In this document: piece after piece, positions 1-6,058 of the stretch
How the letters are laid out: each line of letters starts with the position of its first letter
How positions within the stretch are numbered: position 1 is the first letter of the stretch
Origin: a virus
Virus record (IMG/VR): IMGVR_UViG_3300020030_000051
Location: 1 to 6,068 of that record
Strand: one strand, 5' to 3'
DNA: 6,068 bases
Notes under the pieces: model-generated
Database searches by the model: none
What the model was told of the DNA's origin: nothing
The model's input: the letters and a program-made list of their open reading frames with translations, nothing else
Position numbers and translations under genes: made by a program

Positions 1-111
1 CCAAGGGCGAAGGGCTAAAGCAGACTTAGCAACGTCAGAGCCATTGCGACAAGGATTCTTCTTGTCAAAATAACGACGATTGCGTATCCATAAAGGAGAA
101 GAGCAGGGCAT
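1..111 (-). CDS. Redundant partial copy of the Rep N-terminus (codons 1-37), created by the terminal overlap; not a separate gene
   Basis: The ATG at 109-111 (minus) equals the ATG at 6056-6058. The sequence is the same as 5948-6058 and encodes MPCSSPLWIRNRRYFDKKNPCRNGSDVAKSALALRPW. Confidence 0.85.
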   Translation of the reverse strand, partial: MPCSSPLWIRNRRYFDKKNPCRNGSDVAKSALALRPW

Positions 112-121
112 TAAAATAAGC
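1..121. repeat. Left copy of the exact 121-nt direct terminal repeat (circular-genome redundancy)
   Basis: I compared 1-121 with 5948-6068 base by base and found them identical. The flanks differ (5941-5947 cgacatc; 122 onward tttgaag). Confidence 0.97.
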
Positions 122-311
122 TTTGAAGACAATCAAATCTAATCCTAGGATGATCAAGGCGACAGCGAATAAGATAGTCATTTGCTGGAGTCGCATCGGC
201 AAACCAAGCGATAATAACTCGCTTTCTACCTCTATATGCGCCAATAGAATAGCGATAAGGAGTGCTATTGATGACGGGGGAAAACCTGGGGCGGAAGTCG
301 TAATAATCCAT
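111..311 (-). CDS. Small basic hypothetical protein (66 aa from the first ATG; the ORF track extends it to 440 using a GTG start)
   Basis: The ATG lies at 309-311 (minus). The TAA stop at 111-113 overlaps the Rep ATG as TAATG, which suggests translational coupling. The product is Arg-rich (10 R and 1 K against 6 D). The 312-440 extension starts at GTG and lies in a hairpin-dense, GC-rich stretch, so I prefer the ATG. I recognise no family. Confidence 0.35.
   Translation of the reverse strand: MDYYDFRPRFSPVINSTPYRYSIGAYRGRKRVIIAWFADATPANDYLIRCRLDHPRIRFDCLQSLF
134..141 (-). promoter_or_regulatory. Candidate Bacteroides-type -7 promoter box (TAGATTTG) upstream of Rep
   Basis: The minus strand reads TAGATTTG, an exact TAnnTTTG match, 22 nt upstream of the Rep ATG at 111. 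There is no TTTG at the expected -33 position, so support is weak. Confidence 0.25.
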
Positions 312-477: not shown

Positions 478-512
478 AAAAAAAATCCCAGGGGAGAGCG
501 ACTCCCCTGGGA
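478..512 (-). terminator. Rho-independent terminator for minus-strand transcription
   Basis: Perfect 11-bp GC-rich stem (486-496 pairs with 502-512) and a 5-nt loop. On the minus strand it is followed directly by T8 (A8 at 478-485 on plus). It sits 47 nt downstream of the stop at 559-561. There is no T-run on the plus-strand side. Confidence 0.75.
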
Positions 513-558
513 GTCAACGGCCTAAAGAACTCTACCTCCAAGCGGGCGAGTTACGACT

Positions 559-882
559 TTAGTTCCTTTTCCCTTTTTTTTTCGTCGTGCTTTCATCGCA
601 ATCAAGCTCAAGATTAAACATAAGAACGATGGTATTATCGAAAAACTCGATACTAAAGTCGGGGAGAGTACTGCAGGTACTAATAAGGTCAGAGATTTCC
701 GAGTGACCGACGTAGAGAGAATCGCTAATATCCGAATTCTTTAGATAGGAAGCAACGGGAGAATTCGCAATAGCGTCAAAAGGGATAGAAACAAACTGGC
801 CGTCTTTGACGTGACCTACTTGGACAAGGTCAATTTTAAGAGCCGGGTTAATTCGGCGAATAACAACATGAATCTGTGTCAT
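559..882 (-). CDS. Hypothetical protein, 107 aa from ATG 880-882 (the track's 131-aa version uses a TTG at 954)
   Basis: The ATG lies 11 nt after the stop of the upstream ORF (894-896), which fits the compact layout. The TTG extension would overlap that ORF by 61 nt. The C-terminus is basic (KKKGKRN). No recognisable motifs. Confidence 0.5.
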   Translation of the reverse strand: MTQIHVVIRRINPALKIDLVQVGHVKDGQFVSIPFDAIANSPVASYLKNSDISDSLYVGHSEISDLISTCSTLPDFSIEFFDNTIVLMFNLELDCDESTTKKKGKRN

Positions 883-893
883 AATAACGAGGT

Positions 894-1214
894 TTAAAGT
901 CTTACTTGAAGATCGGCGCAAAAACGTTCCCAGGCAGCAGACTGTTTGCGCCAAAAATCAACACCTTCAGGTGTCGAGCAAAACAGGAACGCGGAGGAAA
1001 TAAGGCGGCTCGGGCCAAAGCGGGAAACGTAAAGAGTACGCCGAACGTGAGAGCGCAGGCGATCGCGAAAACTCCTGCAAGGTGCAAAGTCGTGCTCGTA
1101 ATTCTCCTTAAAAGCAGAAAATACCCCTCGACGAACAAGCCACTCGAGGAAAGCATACTCTACAACGTCGATCAACAACTCGTTGACCCTAATACTTTCA
1201 CTAGATGTTTTCAT
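894..1214 (-). CDS. Hypothetical protein, 106 aa
   Basis: ATG at 1212-1214 and TAA at 894-896. It sits about 20-25 nt downstream of a consensus Bacteroides-type promoter. It carries a Trp/Phe-rich C-terminal block, SAFLFCSTPEGVDFWRKQSAAWERF. I cannot assign a family. Confidence 0.55.
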   Translation of the reverse strand: MKTSSESIRVNELLIDVVEYAFLEWLVRRGVFSAFKENYEHDFAPCRSFRDRLRSHVRRTLYVSRFGPSRLISSAFLFCSTPEGVDFWRKQSAAWERFCADLQVRL

Positions 1215-1240
1215 GGTAGTGTGGTTATTGGTTTACAGTG

Positions 1241-1271
1241 CAAATATAAGACAGGAAGAATAAATAGCAAA
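1241..1271 (-). promoter_or_regulatory. Bacteroides/Bacteroidota-type sigma-A promoter: -33 TTTG, 19-nt spacer, -7 TATATTTG
   Basis: The minus strand reads TTTG (1268-1271), then 19 nt, then TATATTTG (1241-1248). This matches the TTTG-N19-21-TAnnTTTG consensus exactly. It lies in the 86-nt gap between the VP2 stop (1301) and the next ATG (1214). Confidence 0.5.
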
Positions 1272-1300: not shown

Positions 1301-2557
1301 TCACCTTACATAACGACGACTAGATTTCGTAGTGCCAGCGTACCTGCCATCTTTGCCAAAAATTTCCCTACTTTCATCATAATCAACAGGAGTAGGACGT
1401 TTAGTTGTAGCAGCGCCGGCGACAGCAATAGCGCCAACCAAGGCAGTTCTCGCCATGCTATAACCAAAAGCATTTTTGCTAGATCGATTTTGAAACCAGC
1501 GACCCGAAAGATCTTGTTCACCTTCTGAAGCGGCGAGACCCATAAGTTTCTGGTGAATCTGACGACCTGTCATCTTTGTTGTCCTGCCAGTAGGTTTACC
1601 TTTTTCATTAACTTCCGGAACATCGATCACCGAGTCCCAATTAAGATCGAACCACTCGCGAAGATCAGCTAAGTTAACCTTACGTATCTCAGACTCAACA
1701 TCTAAGACATCACCGGAAGCGGCAGATTCATAGGCGGCAGCAAAATCCCGAACAATCTGAGCAGCGTAAACAGCATCAAAGTATTTGTCGTTATACTTCT
1801 TGACCTGATTCGCCTCTTCAACATGTTTCGAATACATGGCAACGTAATCTTGAAACTTATACGTAGCCATAAGATCAGCATATTCAGCATCGGCGGCATG
1901 GATATCAGCCAAAGCACGATTGAGACGGATCAATTCGGAAACATTATCGATATTATGCTCTAAAGACTTCTTCTCTAACTCATCCATCTCCTTTCGCCAG
2001 TCTGCGCTATGAGTGTTGCCTCTCATAAGGTCAGCCTCAGCGTTATCACGATTAGCAGCAGCATCGTTACGGTTAACCGAAGAGCGAGCCATCATATTTT
2101 GCGCAATAGCGGTAGGATCGGTGGCTGCAAAACCGCCAGGAGCAATAGGAGAACTACCCGAAGGGCCGGAGGCGGAAGGCATAGGGGCAGAACCGCCGGA
2201 CATAGTAGCACTCACACCAACACCTGAAGAGCCTAGAACGGCAGCGGGGGTTACACCAGCCTTCGAGTAACGATCAAAGACCTTCGAGGGATCATTGTAG
2301 GCGTTTTCGTAGTCAAATTGTTTCTGCCAATTAGCATAAGAAAGTTCAGATTGCTTCTGCATCTGCTCGAGGGCATATCTTTGCTGGAGAGCCATCTGTT
2401 TTTGCTGAAATCTCCACTGACGACGAGCGTTCATGCCACCAAAAAGTTGGCCTAAAAAACCGTTTATCAAACCGGTAGTGCCAGTAGAAGCAGCGGATTC
2501 GCCAAGGGCGCGACCAAAAGAAGTAGTAGCGGCGGCGGCAGCAATAGGGGCAGGCAT
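1301..2557 (-). CDS. VP2: VP2-like minor capsid / DNA pilot protein (418 aa)
   Basis: Gly/Ala-rich N-terminus, then QKQFDYENAYNDPSKVFDRYSKAGVTPAAVLG, which resembles the conserved N-Y-N-(S/D)-P ... AG-(L/V)-(N/T)-P block of gokushovirus VP2. A Ser/Gly/Pro low-complexity linker and a long helical, coiled-coil-like region follow. Size and position fit a pilot protein. Confidence 0.8.
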   Translation of the reverse strand: MPAPIAAAAATTSFGRALGESAASTGTTGLINGFLGQLFGGMNARRQWRFQQKQMALQQRYALEQMQKQSELSYANWQKQFDYENAYNDPSKVFDRYSKAGVTPAAVLGSSGVGVSATMSGGSAPMPSASGPSGSSPIAPGGFAATDPTAIAQNMMARSSVNRNDAAANRDNAEADLMRGNTHSADWRKEMDELEKKSLEHNIDNVSELIRLNRALADIHAADAEYADLMATYKFQDYVAMYSKHVEEANQVKKYNDKYFDAVYAAQIVRDFAAAYESAASGDVLDVESEIRKVNLADLREWFDLNWDSVIDVPEVNEKGKPTGRTTKMTGRQIHQKLMGLAASEGEQDLSGRWFQNRSSKNAFGYSMARTALVGAIAVAGAATTKRPTPVDYDESREIFGKDGRYAGTTKSSRRYVR

Positions 2558-2558
2558 A

Positions 2559-2750
2559 CTATACGTGAGTTAAATTGTTAGAACGAATGATGTAATCAAC
2601 GCGTACTGTATCAATGTGAACGCCACTACGTTGCATCCTAGCCTGAGCAGCACATGACGACAAGAAAAAGGCGGCCAAAGCAGCAACAATAGAAGAAACG
2701 AGCGTCCAAAAAGCTTTCGACTTGTAAAAAGGGGGCTTAACGTCTGACAT
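2559..2750 (-). CDS. Small putative lipoprotein (63-aa precursor, about 31-aa mature peptide)
   Basis: Lys-containing n-region (K5, K10, K12), hydrophobic core AFWTLVSSIVAALAAFFL, and lipobox L-S-S-C with Cys33 at 2652-2654. The TAG stop is 1 nt from the VP2 ATG (TAGTATG). The leader upstream is AT-rich. Confidence 0.6.
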   Translation of the reverse strand: MSDVKPPFYKSKAFWTLVSSIVAALAAFFLSSCAAQARMQRSGVHIDTVRVDYIIRSNNLTHV

Positions 2751-2884: not shown

Positions 2885-3181
2885 CTATTTTTCTTCAGAG
2901 TCGGTTGATTTTGAAGCAGGCTTTGACTTATCAAGCTGTGAATCAATAAGTTCCTGACCAACCTCGAGACCGTCGAACTTATCCATACGAGAGAAGGAGT
3001 TGGGATCAAAATCAATCTCAGGGTTAAATTTCTCTCCCTTTTCAAAATCGGAAGGCTCAGCCGTCACATCTGGACGACCAGGGAGAACGTCGACAGAGCC
3101 AGAACCGTCGAGAACGGAAAGAATGCGCTGCCCGCGAGAAATATATGCGGGGGCGTCTTCTAATAACCAATCAAGTGCCAT
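2885..3181 (-). CDS. Highly acidic 98-aa protein; possible scaffolding-type (VP3-like) protein
   Basis: The ATG lies 12 nt after the capsid gene stop. Composition is 13 D and 9 E against 7 K and 4 R (net about -11), with no hydrophobic core. The functional call rests only on position and charge. Confidence 0.55.
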   Translation of the reverse strand: MALDWLLEDAPAYISRGQRILSVLDGSGSVDVLPGRPDVTAEPSDFEKGEKFNPEIDFDPNSFSRMDKFDGLEVGQELIDSQLDKSKPASKSTDSEEK

Positions 3182-3193
3182 AAGACTGTAGTA

Positions 3194-4984
3194 TTAACGA
3201 TTAGACAAACGGGTAGCAAACGTCTTGTTCACTAAATTCTTCTTCTGAACAGCATACGAGAGATTCACAAAAAAGTTATCCTCAACGCGCGAGGCAAACG
3301 CCGAATTCACCTGTCCAATGTTAACAAACAGGTTAGCGTAGTACGTATTATAACTTTGCGACAAGACGCGCTGCTGTACCCAATAAGCATAAAGCGGAAT
3401 CTTCGTGTCGGAAGACTGAAAACGGGAAAGCTGGCCTAAAACTTCATCATAGGATGACCTAAATTCATTGAAGCATGGCTCCTGAGCGACCGTGTCGATG
3501 GAAATCGACGACCCTAAACCAAACTGGAAAGACGGAACATCCTGATAACCAATATCATTATAAATGGGGTTAAAATAGTCAGAACCAGTATAATGCAGAT
3601 AATCGGGGTAAACACCAGCCCAGTAATAGATAGGTCGTATACTCAACATATCAATCATATAACCGGGCTCACGAAAATAGTAAGACTGTCGACGACCTAA
3701 TCGATCGTTAAAAGCAATAGCGCCACCCTGCTGTCCCAGAGGACCATTAACGCTCGGACCGGTGAAGTTATTTTGTCCAGCTTGATTCATAACAATCTGC
3801 ACGTTGACAGTCTGAGAAGCACTAAAGAGAAGCTTCGGGCGATCAACATGTTCAATTTTAGAGGCGAAAAACGTCTCAAGCCAATCACTATAACGGCTGC
3901 CTCCAGCGCCGAGAAGGTCCTTGTATTCCTGAAGACGAGAAGCAATGGCCAACTGCGGAATAGTGTTTACTCCTGTCATCGAAACAGCAGAATTAGAGCC
4001 AGTAGGCAATAAACGACTGTAACGATCGGGATTGGAAGGAACAACCGCCATAGGGTGGGCAACAAGGAAAGCGCCGAGAGACGTAATACGCGAGTCAGCA
4101 GCATCGGTAGAAAGTTGACCAGCGGGGCCAGCCTCTGTCAAAACGCCGTTACCGGGATAAGTTTTTGAAACAGGATACCCATTCGAAGACGCGGCGGCCG
4201 TAGCGCCAAGATCGGAAAAGAGTATCTGAAAGTACAAATTACCACGATTATAGGTGTTATTGTTCGAGGAAACTGCAGCCGGGTAAAACTGACTCTCAAA
4301 AAAGGCATCGAGATATTCGAGATTTCCAAAACGCTGCGTAAAAAAAGAACTCTCTTCAGCAAACTGAAAAAGGTTGGGGTATGAACCCGAAGAATTTGAG
4401 ATAGAATACCAAGACGATGGCCAAGCAAAAGAATAAAGGCCCCACTGTGAATAACTGTAATAGTTGCGGACGATATCCCAATAGGCTAAATAAGTATCCG
4501 CGTTACACCAAGAAACAGGGAAAGAAAGCTGAGCCGCCGAAAGATTAGGAGAGACAGGATGATCTGAAGACGTAACGACTGGAATACCCGCGGGAACGAC
4601 ACGCAGCCAACGAAGCAATGAATTGGAATAAGGCATATTGTTGGTCGTAAAAGTATAAGAGTCTGTCGACGATGCCGTAATAAAATTAAGGCTCAAGTCG
4701 TTCATATCAAACTTACTACTATTCGTCCTCATCTCGGGATGATACAACTGAATCGGCACCCAAAAACGGTGAAGCCGAACAGTATAGGGATTGAACGTCG
4801 GAACAGCAAGAGGGTTACTGCGAACATCAATGCCTTGTTCAATAGAAACACGGTCTCGAGCATTAATAAAATCGATTCGCACCGGATATAAAATACCCGG
4901 CGTACACGTAAAGGCCTTGCTCTCAGGGACATCGTAGCGAGAGTAGCCATTAACGGCGTGAGAAATAAAAGGTTGTTTTCCCAT
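3194..4984 (-). CDS. VP1: Major capsid protein VP1 (Microviridae F-protein family), 596 aa
   Basis: The N-terminal block YSRYDVPESKAFTCTPGILYPVRIDFINARDRV ... RLHRFWVPIQL, the central block ASRLQEYKDLLGAGGSRYSDWLETFFASKIEHVDRPKLL (3827-3955) and EPGYMIDMLSIRPIYYW match conserved blocks of microvirus capsid proteins as I know them. Confidence 0.93.
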   Translation of the reverse strand: MGKQPFISHAVNGYSRYDVPESKAFTCTPGILYPVRIDFINARDRVSIEQGIDVRSNPLAVPTFNPYTVRLHRFWVPIQLYHPEMRTNSSKFDMNDLSLNFITASSTDSYTFTTNNMPYSNSLLRWLRVVPAGIPVVTSSDHPVSPNLSAAQLSFPVSWCNADTYLAYWDIVRNYYSYSQWGLYSFAWPSSWYSISNSSGSYPNLFQFAEESSFFTQRFGNLEYLDAFFESQFYPAAVSSNNNTYNRGNLYFQILFSDLGATAAASSNGYPVSKTYPGNGVLTEAGPAGQLSTDAADSRITSLGAFLVAHPMAVVPSNPDRYSRLLPTGSNSAVSMTGVNTIPQLAIASRLQEYKDLLGAGGSRYSDWLETFFASKIEHVDRPKLLFSASQTVNVQIVMNQAGQNNFTGPSVNGPLGQQGGAIAFNDRLGRRQSYYFREPGYMIDMLSIRPIYYWAGVYPDYLHYTGSDYFNPIYNDIGYQDVPSFQFGLGSSISIDTVAQEPCFNEFRSSYDEVLGQLSRFQSSDTKIPLYAYWVQQRVLSQSYNTYYANLFVNIGQVNSAFASRVEDNFFVNLSYAVQKKNLVNKTFATRLSNR

Positions 4985-4987
4985 AAA

Positions 4988-6058
4988 TTAAATAATTAGT
5001 TGAAGTTTGTAATGATCTTGCCAGAATTGGAGAATATCCAAATCTAACCAAGTAGGAGGGTCAAAATCGGGCATCTCGCGAGAGGAGGCAGAAAAGCGCA
5101 TCATCTGTTTCTGTTCCCACGTGTATGCCTCTCTACGGGATACGGAGGATTTGAGATTGAACCGTTCAACACACAAAGAAACAATACGCTTAACCAAAGG
5201 AGACTTGCTAAAACGTGCGTAAGAATCAGCAGCGATAATCGAACGTGAAATTTCGTCTTCTTGTTTAAGATATCTAAGATAGTATCGAGGGATCGCGTAA
5301 TTGTAATTGATACGCTTCTCAAAATCATAATAAGACCACGTCGAAGTACGAGTAGAAGGACGAGGCATATAACCAAGAAAATCACCAACGCCAGCAGATA
5401 CGAATTTTCGCGTATAACGGCGATGTTGGAGGAGACAAGATAAAGACGTAAGTTTTCCATCTAAAATGACATTTTGATTCAATATTTCTGCAGGATCGAA
5501 ATAAATTTGCTTAGTAACATATTTGACAACGTATCGTGCACGCTTGTGCGTGCCTTTCGCAAGCCAAACGAAGCCTAAATCACGGACAGCTGATCTAATT
5601 TCGTTATAAAGACAGTTGGTGCCAAAAAGAAAGCCATGGAAGTGAAGACGCGGCGCCGATCCTGTTTCAGGGTGAGTGCCAAACTCCTGGAAAAATGCAT
5701 GCTTAAAGGAGTGACCAAGGCGGTGTCGAACTCGCTCATTCCATCGCCGGATGAATCTGGAGGGGTCTCGCAGCGCTTCATTGTAATACTTAGGGGATAT
5801 GGTTATCGTGATAAAAATAGCCTGTTGAGACTCAGCCTTACAGCGAGCAAGCTCGCGTTCCAAGCGAACGAACCAGTTATTGCGCTGACGGCGCAAGCAC
5901 TCTTCACACTTGCCGCATGGAACTAAAAGCCACTGACGAGCGACATCCCAAGGGCGAAGGGCTAAAGCAGACTTAGCAACGTCAGAGCCATTGCGACAAG
6001 GATTCTTCTTGTCAAAATAACGACGATTGCGTATCCATAAAGGAGAAGAGCAGGGCAT
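4988..6058 (-). CDS. VP4: Replication initiation protein VP4 (HUH rolling-circle endonuclease, phiX A-like), 356 aa
   Basis: N-terminal Cys cluster (C3, C21, PCGKCEEC at residues 47-54). Motif I AIFITITI. HUH motif PRLHFHGFLF (H-F-H at 5636-5644). Two-tyrosine catalytic motif RYVVKYVTK (Y176 and Y180 at 5519-5533), comparable to YVAKYVNK in phiX174 A. The TAA stop is 3 nt before the capsid ATG. Confidence 0.93.
   Translation of the reverse strand: MPCSSPLWIRNRRYFDKKNPCRNGSDVAKSALALRPWDVARQWLLVPCGKCEECLRRQRNNWFVRLERELARCKAESQQAIFITITISPKYYNEALRDPSRFIRRWNERVRHRLGHSFKHAFFQEFGTHPETGSAPRLHFHGFLFGTNCLYNEIRSAVRDLGFVWLAKGTHKRARYVVKYVTKQIYFDPAEILNQNVILDGKLTSLSCLLQHRRYTRKFVSAGVGDFLGYMPRPSTRTSTWSYYDFEKRINYNYAIPRYYLRYLKQEDEISRSIIAADSYARFSKSPLVKRIVSLCVERFNLKSSVSRREAYTWEQKQMMRFSASSREMPDFDPPTWLDLDILQFWQDHYKLQLII

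Follow-up and report, generated by a model that had tools for sequence, protein, structure and literature searches.

The PD-D-(E)-J-TJ unit of the phage phiX174 is expressed from an internal promoter of a one-directional, circular single-stranded DNA (ssDNA) genome, yields a short message with overlapping genes, and ends with the gene of a tiny, very basic DNA-binding peptide (J), followed by a terminator. The genes upstream of J code for the external scaffold (D) and for lysis (E), and the unit precedes the capsid gene. In the gokushovirus phiMH2K, the genes VP5, J-like ORF8 and VP4 follow one another. J of phiX174 and VP8 of gokushoviruses neutralise and tether the ssDNA within the capsid. 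The morons of lambdoid phages are promoter-gene-terminator inserts between core genes. Microviruses of the type studied here are abundant in the gut and, to our knowledge, only their capsid, pilot and Rep proteins have been assigned. The present analysis concerns the IMG/VR virus record IMGVR_UViG_3300020030_000051, a stretch of 6,068 nt analysed at full length (the window), and in particular the region behind its pilot gene, where two open reading frames (ORFs), A and B, lie between a Bacteroidota-type promoter and an intrinsic terminator (Table 1). An earlier reading of the letters alone (the original prediction) had taken this region for a moron-like cassette. Homologues of J/VP8, C/VP5 and other small proteins have been reported as not found in Bacteroidetes microviruses (PMC3091885, PMC3394797).

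The window holds an entire circular microvirus genome (5,947 nt) plus an assembly overlap of 121 nt; the IMG/VR record is classed as 100% complete, with direct terminal repeats. All its genes are located on the minus strand, and the genome is transcribed one way. The region in question is probably a conserved, internally promoted operon of three genes (A, B and a hidden J-like gene) with which the one-directional gene array ends; the signals of this gut microvirus are of the Bacteroidota type. Related genomes were drawn from GenBank faecal microviruses and 56 IMG/VR genomes. A survey of relatives for a variable insert, as the original prediction had proposed, found the unit in all 59 of them, with the order VP4-VP1-98aa-63aa-VP2-A-B retained in 57; B is present throughout, and A alone is missing in two of the 59 and in the more distant genome L060.

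Operons of this kind, internally promoted in a microvirus and with a J-type last gene, are known, and the wider interest of the locus lies in the J-like gene and in the family link of A. Its closest analogue appears to be the PD-D-(E)-J-TJ unit, with which it shares the internal promoter, the one-directional circular ssDNA genome, the short (here predicted) message, the overlapping genes, and the final gene for a tiny basic peptide ahead of a terminator. Unlike the phiX174 unit, it carries a Bacteroidota -33/-7 promoter, is placed after the pilot gene and before Rep, and harbors upstream genes (A and B) unrelated in sequence to D and E; the J-type gene overlaps its upstream neighbor by 38 nt, compared with 1 nt in phiX174. 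Among gokushoviruses, the VP5-ORF8-VP4 segment of phiMH2K would be the nearest counterpart. Both lineages have a non-structural gene of about 85-107 amino acids (aa), followed by a gene for a small basic peptide (ending in GGIRL and GGRVL, respectively) upstream of Rep, and B can be regarded as a positional analogue of VP5, to which it shows no detectable similarity. In the studied lineage, B and the J-like gene are followed by a non-coding region, a 66-codon ORF and then VP4; gene A, a dedicated promoter, a strong terminator and the 66-codon ORF before Rep are additions with respect to phiMH2K.

The hidden gene, a 24-codon ORF that translates to MKARRKKKGKGTKVVTRPLGGRVL, begins 38 nt inside the 3' end of B in another frame, and its end is separated from the terminator stem by 9 nt; what looks like a 46-nt spacer from the B stop to the hairpin is in fact coding sequence. 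About 37 nt downstream of B are nearly invariant among the relatives, and the J-like ORF is intact in 55/55 of them. Minor-allele counts by codon position amount to 16/28/173 in the overlap with B and to 20/14/159 beyond it, and in the non-overlapping part 41 distinct DNA versions correspond to 8 peptide versions. The concentration of variation at third positions even within the overlap demonstrates selection on the J-like frame, at the expense of the B tail. In most relatives the B tail is acidic (KEEGKGN), and the J-like frame keeps RRKKKGKG. The Lys-rich tail that the original prediction ascribed to B stems from the same A-rich DNA as the J-like peptide, read in the other frame.

With 10 Lys/Arg among 24 residues and an isoelectric point (pI) of 12, the peptide lies within the 20-40-aa, Lys/Arg-rich range of J and VP8. 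Behind a basic N-terminus, its less basic C-terminus (GGRVL) shows the GGxx-hydrophobic anchor also seen in phiX174 J (GGQQF) and phiMH2K ORF8 (GGIRL); the GG is kept in most relatives, and L060 has LG and L062 LGN in its place. A J-like gene is likewise present at the end of the B-like ORF in the distant genomes L060, L061, L062 and L003, the peptide of the first of these, Tortoise microvirus 7, reading MSRKNRRRKQTRGTRVVTRPLLGPVL. The peptide is treated here as a putative functional equivalent of J/VP8, and membership in that family is plausible. Six GenBank records (MG945455, MG945141, PQ006896, MK765557, OM869610 and PP511490) encode a J-like gene of 24-27 codons at the end of the B-like ORF, and it is annotated in none of the six.

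ORF B, separated from A by 11 nt, codes for a mildly acidic protein with a disordered C-terminal tail. The 616 homologues retrieved (1,067 when a profile was used) almost all measure 107 aa and come from contigs not exceeding about 6 kb. The ratio of non-synonymous to synonymous substitution rates (dN/dS) is 0.21 in close pairs, denoting purifying selection. The AlphaFold2 model (mean predicted local distance difference test score, pLDDT, 85) comprises a beta-rich alpha/beta domain, in agreement with the beta-rich character predicted earlier, and a disordered tail that corresponds to the part overlapped by the J-like gene. Weak GFRP-like matches in a Foldseek search against the Protein Data Bank (PDB) (E 0.16, template modelling (TM) score 0.35-0.44) were rejected as chance. 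A search of BFVD returned only uncharacterised Microviridae proteins (TM 0.56-0.75), including a 101-aa protein and one from a marine microvirus. In Tortoise microvirus 7, the 101-aa ORF right after VP2 is a B homologue (hhalign 94.9%), and Dulem virus 225 has another at the corresponding place, an ORF of 98 aa (hhalign 81.9%). The constant presence of B, its overlap with the peptide gene, its position and its remote homologues suggest a lineage-wide morphogenesis or packaging factor that would work together with the peptide.

The promoter is located just after VP2, as described in the original prediction, 29 nt past the VP2 stop and 26 nt ahead of the A start. Promoters known from Bacteroides fragilis share a -7 box TAnnTTTG and a -33 box TTTG, 19-21 nt apart, and this Bacteroidota primary-sigma consensus is matched exactly, with a spacer of 19 nt. 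TTTG-N19-TATATTTG is the sole full match in the window, but 0.18 matches per window are expected by chance, and at least one occurred in 32 of 200 shuffled sequences, so that support has to come from conservation. In 34 of the 40 relatives usable for this comparison, the -7 box precedes the A start by a fixed 26 nt (23-29 nt in a few); in the distant genomes L003, L061 and L062, it occurs 26-28 nt ahead of the first ORF after VP2. The VP2-A intergenic region measures 80-86 nt in most genomes and follows the consensus CGACTTTTTGAAC-TTTG-(T-rich)-TAtaTTTG-CAtTGTAAACCAATAACCAcAttAtt-ATG; its majority-base fraction reaches 0.76-0.84, against 0.51-0.53 for third codon positions in the genes on either side, with the -7 box well conserved and the -33 box less so. 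Conservation of a non-coding region and the fixed position of the -7 box, distant genomes included, argue for a real and old promoter.

The predicted 5' leader between the -7 box and A shows a majority-base fraction of about 0.9 across 56 relatives and is retained in both genomes that have lost A (see below). No other non-coding stretch of the unit is as conserved as its motif GTAAACCAATAACC (1215-1235), which may represent a translation or stability signal. Among RNA runs, 5% of the sampled words occurred in just two, both from wastewater and stored as contigs, a form unsuited to mapping transcript ends.

At the other end, the intrinsic terminator noted in the original prediction consists of an 11-bp stem and a T8 tract and is by far the strongest of five terminator-like sites in the window (shuffle mean 7.5). 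It is the only strong site of this type in the genome, and none lies between VP2 and A. In most relatives a hairpin occurs at an equal distance past the J-like stop, with arms that vary by sublineage and yet stay complementary (CCCAGGGG/CCCCTGGG, CCCGGGGG/CCCCCGGG, CCTGTGGGAGA/TCTCCTGCAGG and CAGGAGA/TCTCCTG); by a strict count, a T-rich tail follows in 27/55 relatives. These hairpins were extracted sequence by sequence, as RNAalifold on a MAFFT alignment placed them out of register and under-called the stem. GC-rich hairpin, U-tract and structural conservation, the hallmarks of a rho-independent terminator, are thus all present. Since this sole strong terminator belongs to a one-directional genome and none separates VP2 from A, it probably closes the whole array and would not be private to a cassette. 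In about eight relatives (among them L001, L002, L030, L033, L034, L036 and L054), a longer composite structure replaces the simple hairpin; it includes CAACCGAAGGTTG, and a CCGCGAAGCGG mini-hairpin is nested between its CCCCAGGGG/CCCCT arms.

Taken as an operon of three genes, the unit would operate as follows. Host RNA polymerase would initiate roughly 20 nt upstream of A, at the -33/-7 promoter, transcribe A, B and then the 24-codon gene overlapping B, and halt at the terminator, which would also stop read-through from the upstream genes; a short, abundant mRNA would result. The basic peptide most likely neutralises and tethers the ssDNA within the capsid, in the manner of phiX174 J and gokushovirus VP8, and B most likely acts alongside it in packaging or morphogenesis. 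A, which appears to be dispensable, fast-evolving and single-copy, would most likely bind a host factor for takeover or counter-defence.

ORF A codes for a basic protein (pI 9.3) with the signature FxxWL...N...AFxFxxTPEGxxFW...W. Among relatives its length is fixed and 10 residues are invariant; dN/dS in close pairs is 0.29, which again denotes purifying selection, and its proportion of non-synonymous differences (pN, 0.31) is the highest, level with that of the pilot protein. The 193 close homologues of A resemble those of B in that nearly all are 105-107 aa long and stem from contigs of about 6 kb or less. The AlphaFold2 model (pLDDT 89) consists of four helices. Sequence-profile searches of PDB with A1, A2 and A3 gave no credible match. 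Scans of A and B against Pfam, PHROGs, NCBIfam and PADLOC stayed below threshold, apart from matches of A to PHROGs of unknown function. Over the STPEGVDFW codons of A, at 958-977 (minus strand), lies an 8-bp hairpin with a TTTTT tail, which is probably incidental to coding. Antisense and alternative-frame ORFs across A and B are open in only 10/57 and 24/55 relatives and were rejected as genes.

Natural losses of A have occurred. In L002 (MG945141) and L049, A is removed by two independent internal deletions with different end points; each spares promoter and leader and fuses them to a B that is itself intact, and L049 additionally shows a change of the A start codon from ATG to ATT. In the distant Tortoise microvirus 7, A is absent and B directly follows VP2. 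These deletions suggest that A is dispensable.

A belongs to a helical, widespread and uncurated domain family. Its profile retrieved 470 representatives from 1.84 billion proteins, about 35 of which are microviral orthologues; the remaining matches are single-domain proteins of 77-120 aa and proteins of 180-960 aa with 2-5 copies of the domain, the repeat proteins being matched at E values of 1e-13 to 1e-8. Conversely, a hidden Markov model of the family matches A of the window at 4.9e-24, as well as each repeat of the tailed-phage proteins. The family-wide signature reads FxxFL...N...AFxWxxTPEGxxFW...W, and no Pfam or PDB entry covers it. A matches PHROGs 10949, 30073 and 16354, all annotated as of unknown function, and 45/55 A orthologues match phrog_10949. 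PHROGs 16354, 10949, 30073, 25460 and 20568 share the AFxWxxTPEGxxFW...W core with A and its relatives and are likewise labelled "unknown function", without a described structure.

In tailed phages, the A-like genes reside in regions of early functions or of replication: one is situated between primase and DNA polymerase genes on a 49-kb contig, and others adjoin AAA_24, RadC, deoxyribosyltransferase and Cro-like genes. A 40-kb tailed-phage contig (L074, 1099-4180) harbors an array of eight consecutive A-like paralogues, and proteins with 2-5 tandem copies are encoded on L064 (10001-11305) and L068 (984-2702). A tblastn search of GenBank phages with a five-repeat A-like protein gave no match. 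Repeats, arrays, early-region contexts and the losses of A fit an accessory host-interaction module, and the idea of a role in host takeover or anti-defence thereby remains tenable for A, and for A only; taken together, the unit is no optional insert. A bolder proposal assigns A, as a protein with one domain, to a widespread phage module not described before, which would bind host factors for takeover or counter-defence, and in addition takes the 24-codon gene for the "missing" J/VP8 equivalent; this combination is put forward tentatively, as a possibility rather than an expectation.

The remaining genes of the window and all coordinates are collected in Table 1. In close pairs, dN/dS of Rep and of the 98-aa and 63-aa proteins amounts to 0.08-0.10, lower than for A and B. 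Identity of VP2 to the window is bimodal among relatives (about 44-55% versus about 72-95%), and in the same relatives Rep and the 98-aa and 63-aa proteins are all 80-95% identical, a pattern suggesting that members of the clade have exchanged the pilot gene by recombination. Of 60 related genomes, about 55 conserve the 66-codon ORF with no stop codon inside it, among them distant genomes in which identity is 41-47%, so that it is very likely a real ninth gene. A -7-like box (TAGATTTG, 134-141) at a conserved position, 22 nt before the Rep start, falls inside this ORF, and its conservation cannot be counted as evidence for a promoter because it may reflect coding. The host is presumably a member of the Bacteroidota, as judged solely from the promoter type. 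The isolated Bacteroides phage phiHBP1 (PV598014) has a gene set that differs from that of the studied lineage and gave no match to A, B or the J-like gene at the sensitivity used.

Table 1. Features of the analysed genome, in window coordinates.
Feature	Position	Strand	Details
Rep/VP4	4988-6058	-	
Capsid VP1	3194-4984	-	
Acidic 98-aa ORF	2885-3181	-	
63-aa membrane ORF	2559-2750	-	
Pilot VP2	1301-2557	-	
Promoter, Bacteroidota-type	1241-1271	-	-33 TTTG 1268-1271, 19-nt spacer, -7 TATATTTG 1241-1248
Predicted 5' leader	1215-1240	-	contains highly conserved GTAAACCAATAACC
ORF A, 106 aa	894-1214	-	
ORF B, 107 aa	559-882	-	
J-like gene, 24 codons, unannotated	522-596	-	
Predicted intrinsic terminator	478-512	-	11-bp stem, 8 GC pairs, 5-nt loop (486-512), T8 (478-485)
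66-codon ORF, ATG start	111-311	-	ends in TAATG at Rep start

The original prediction had likened everything from promoter to terminator to an autonomously expressed moron. In its full form, this explanation would make the unit an accessory cassette, acquired as a block, self-expressed, serving takeover, exclusion or anti-defence, and needless for virions. The layout described is real, with both ORFs and both signals where they had been placed, and it resembles lambdoid morons in having small genes of unknown function between a consensus promoter and a strong predicted terminator. Neither A nor B is recognisable as a known microvirus protein, as the original prediction had said of canonical VP3, VP5 and J-type proteins, or as a member of a curated family; A comes from a tailed-phage early-region family, and both evolve faster than Rep and the 98-aa and 63-aa proteins. 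Such a cassette is nevertheless very improbable and largely refuted by synteny and by the J-like gene. Presence and absence at the same site, typical of morons, is not seen for the unit, whose position is fixed in 57/59 relatives with B in every one, and the B-like gene, the J-like gene and the promoter persist in distant relatives. The unit further contains a core-type gene for a DNA-binding peptide under very strong purifying selection, its terminator is probably shared with the whole genome, and its GC content is not clearly deviant (A 0.486, B 0.410, genome 0.454, other genes 0.438-0.477). The original prediction had itself named conserved core or DNA-binding proteins as incompatible with a cassette, and the J-like gene and, through its conservation, B are of this kind. 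Compared with lambdoid morons, the unit is thus fixed and ancient, and beyond the layout the likeness is restricted to A, with its patchy presence and horizontally spread family.

If A is not accessory, it could be an essential core protein, either an equivalent of phiX174 C or gokushovirus VP5 or an adaptor in replication or packaging, and the genomes lacking it would be defective, helper-dependent or artefacts. Its occurrence in 57/59 relatives, fixed length, invariant residues and purifying selection would suit this explanation, as would its basic and helical nature, shared with many small DNA- or protein-binding factors, and the proximity of tailed-phage A-like genes to primase, polymerase and AAA_24 genes. 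It is rendered unlikely by the two independent deletions that leave promoter, leader and B intact, by Tortoise microvirus 7, which has B and the J-like gene without A, by the lack of similarity to C or VP5, and by the paralogue arrays and tandem repeats, which characterise accessory host-interaction families more than core replication factors. Integration has also to be considered: Alpavirinae-type microviruses can integrate via the host Xer system. The unit might accordingly be a lysogeny or regulatory module, with A as a DNA-binding regulator that has its own promoter in the prophage state. Bacteroidetes microvirus prophages have been described (PMC3091885), and A shows a weak, sub-threshold Pfam match to the helix-turn-helix (HTH) domain DUF4817 (E=0.14). 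This explanation is scarcely credible, since no B homologue, and hence no prophage copy, was seen among 185,579 prokaryote species, each represented by a single genome, the fold of A gave no HTH or repressor match, and five-fold tandem repeats of the domain would ill suit a sequence-specific repressor.

A number of points weigh against the reading preferred here, that of a three-gene operon with a J-like last gene. The J-like peptide matched no Pfam family at E values up to 10, and homology to J/VP8 is beyond proof by sequence at 24 aa; at this length a profile match is hardly attainable, so that the missing match lowers the claim of family membership but not the claim that the peptide works like J. 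Its presence and role in the virion are predicted from these features of the gene. For B, the model matches no solved structure in PDB, and hhalign gave probabilities below 1% against phiX174 C and phiMH2K VP5 and of 0.2% against phiMH2K VP3; its proposed role is read from position and conservation only, and the 66-codon ORF upstream of Rep competes with it as a candidate for the C/VP5 role. For A, the best Foldseek match in PDB had an E value of 3.3, which is no match, and hhalign against phiX174 C and phiMH2K VP5 again remained below 1%. The fold searches that had been suggested for A and B returned no PDB match from which a function could be read. Both A-lacking relatives are metagenomic assemblies and could be defective, and neither A nor B has a clearly foreign composition. 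Finally, a single promoter match is by itself not statistically significant, and the ends of the transcript, like the working of the terminator, are predictions.

For gut microviruses, the analysis adds a conserved, predicted transcription unit with Bacteroidota signals and a strongly conserved, unannotated peptide gene of the DNA-binding type; it marks B as a conserved protein with a fold that matches no solved structure and ties A to a large, uncurated tailed-phage family. If the proposal for A holds true, its location downstream of the strongest promoter in an ssDNA phage of 6 kb would represent a rare gene exchange between the microvirus and tailed-phage pools. Overlapping genes of 24 codons are missed by annotation pipelines, for which these findings provide targets, and they equally offer experimental targets for studying how tailless ssDNA phages package their DNA and deal with their Bacteroidales hosts.

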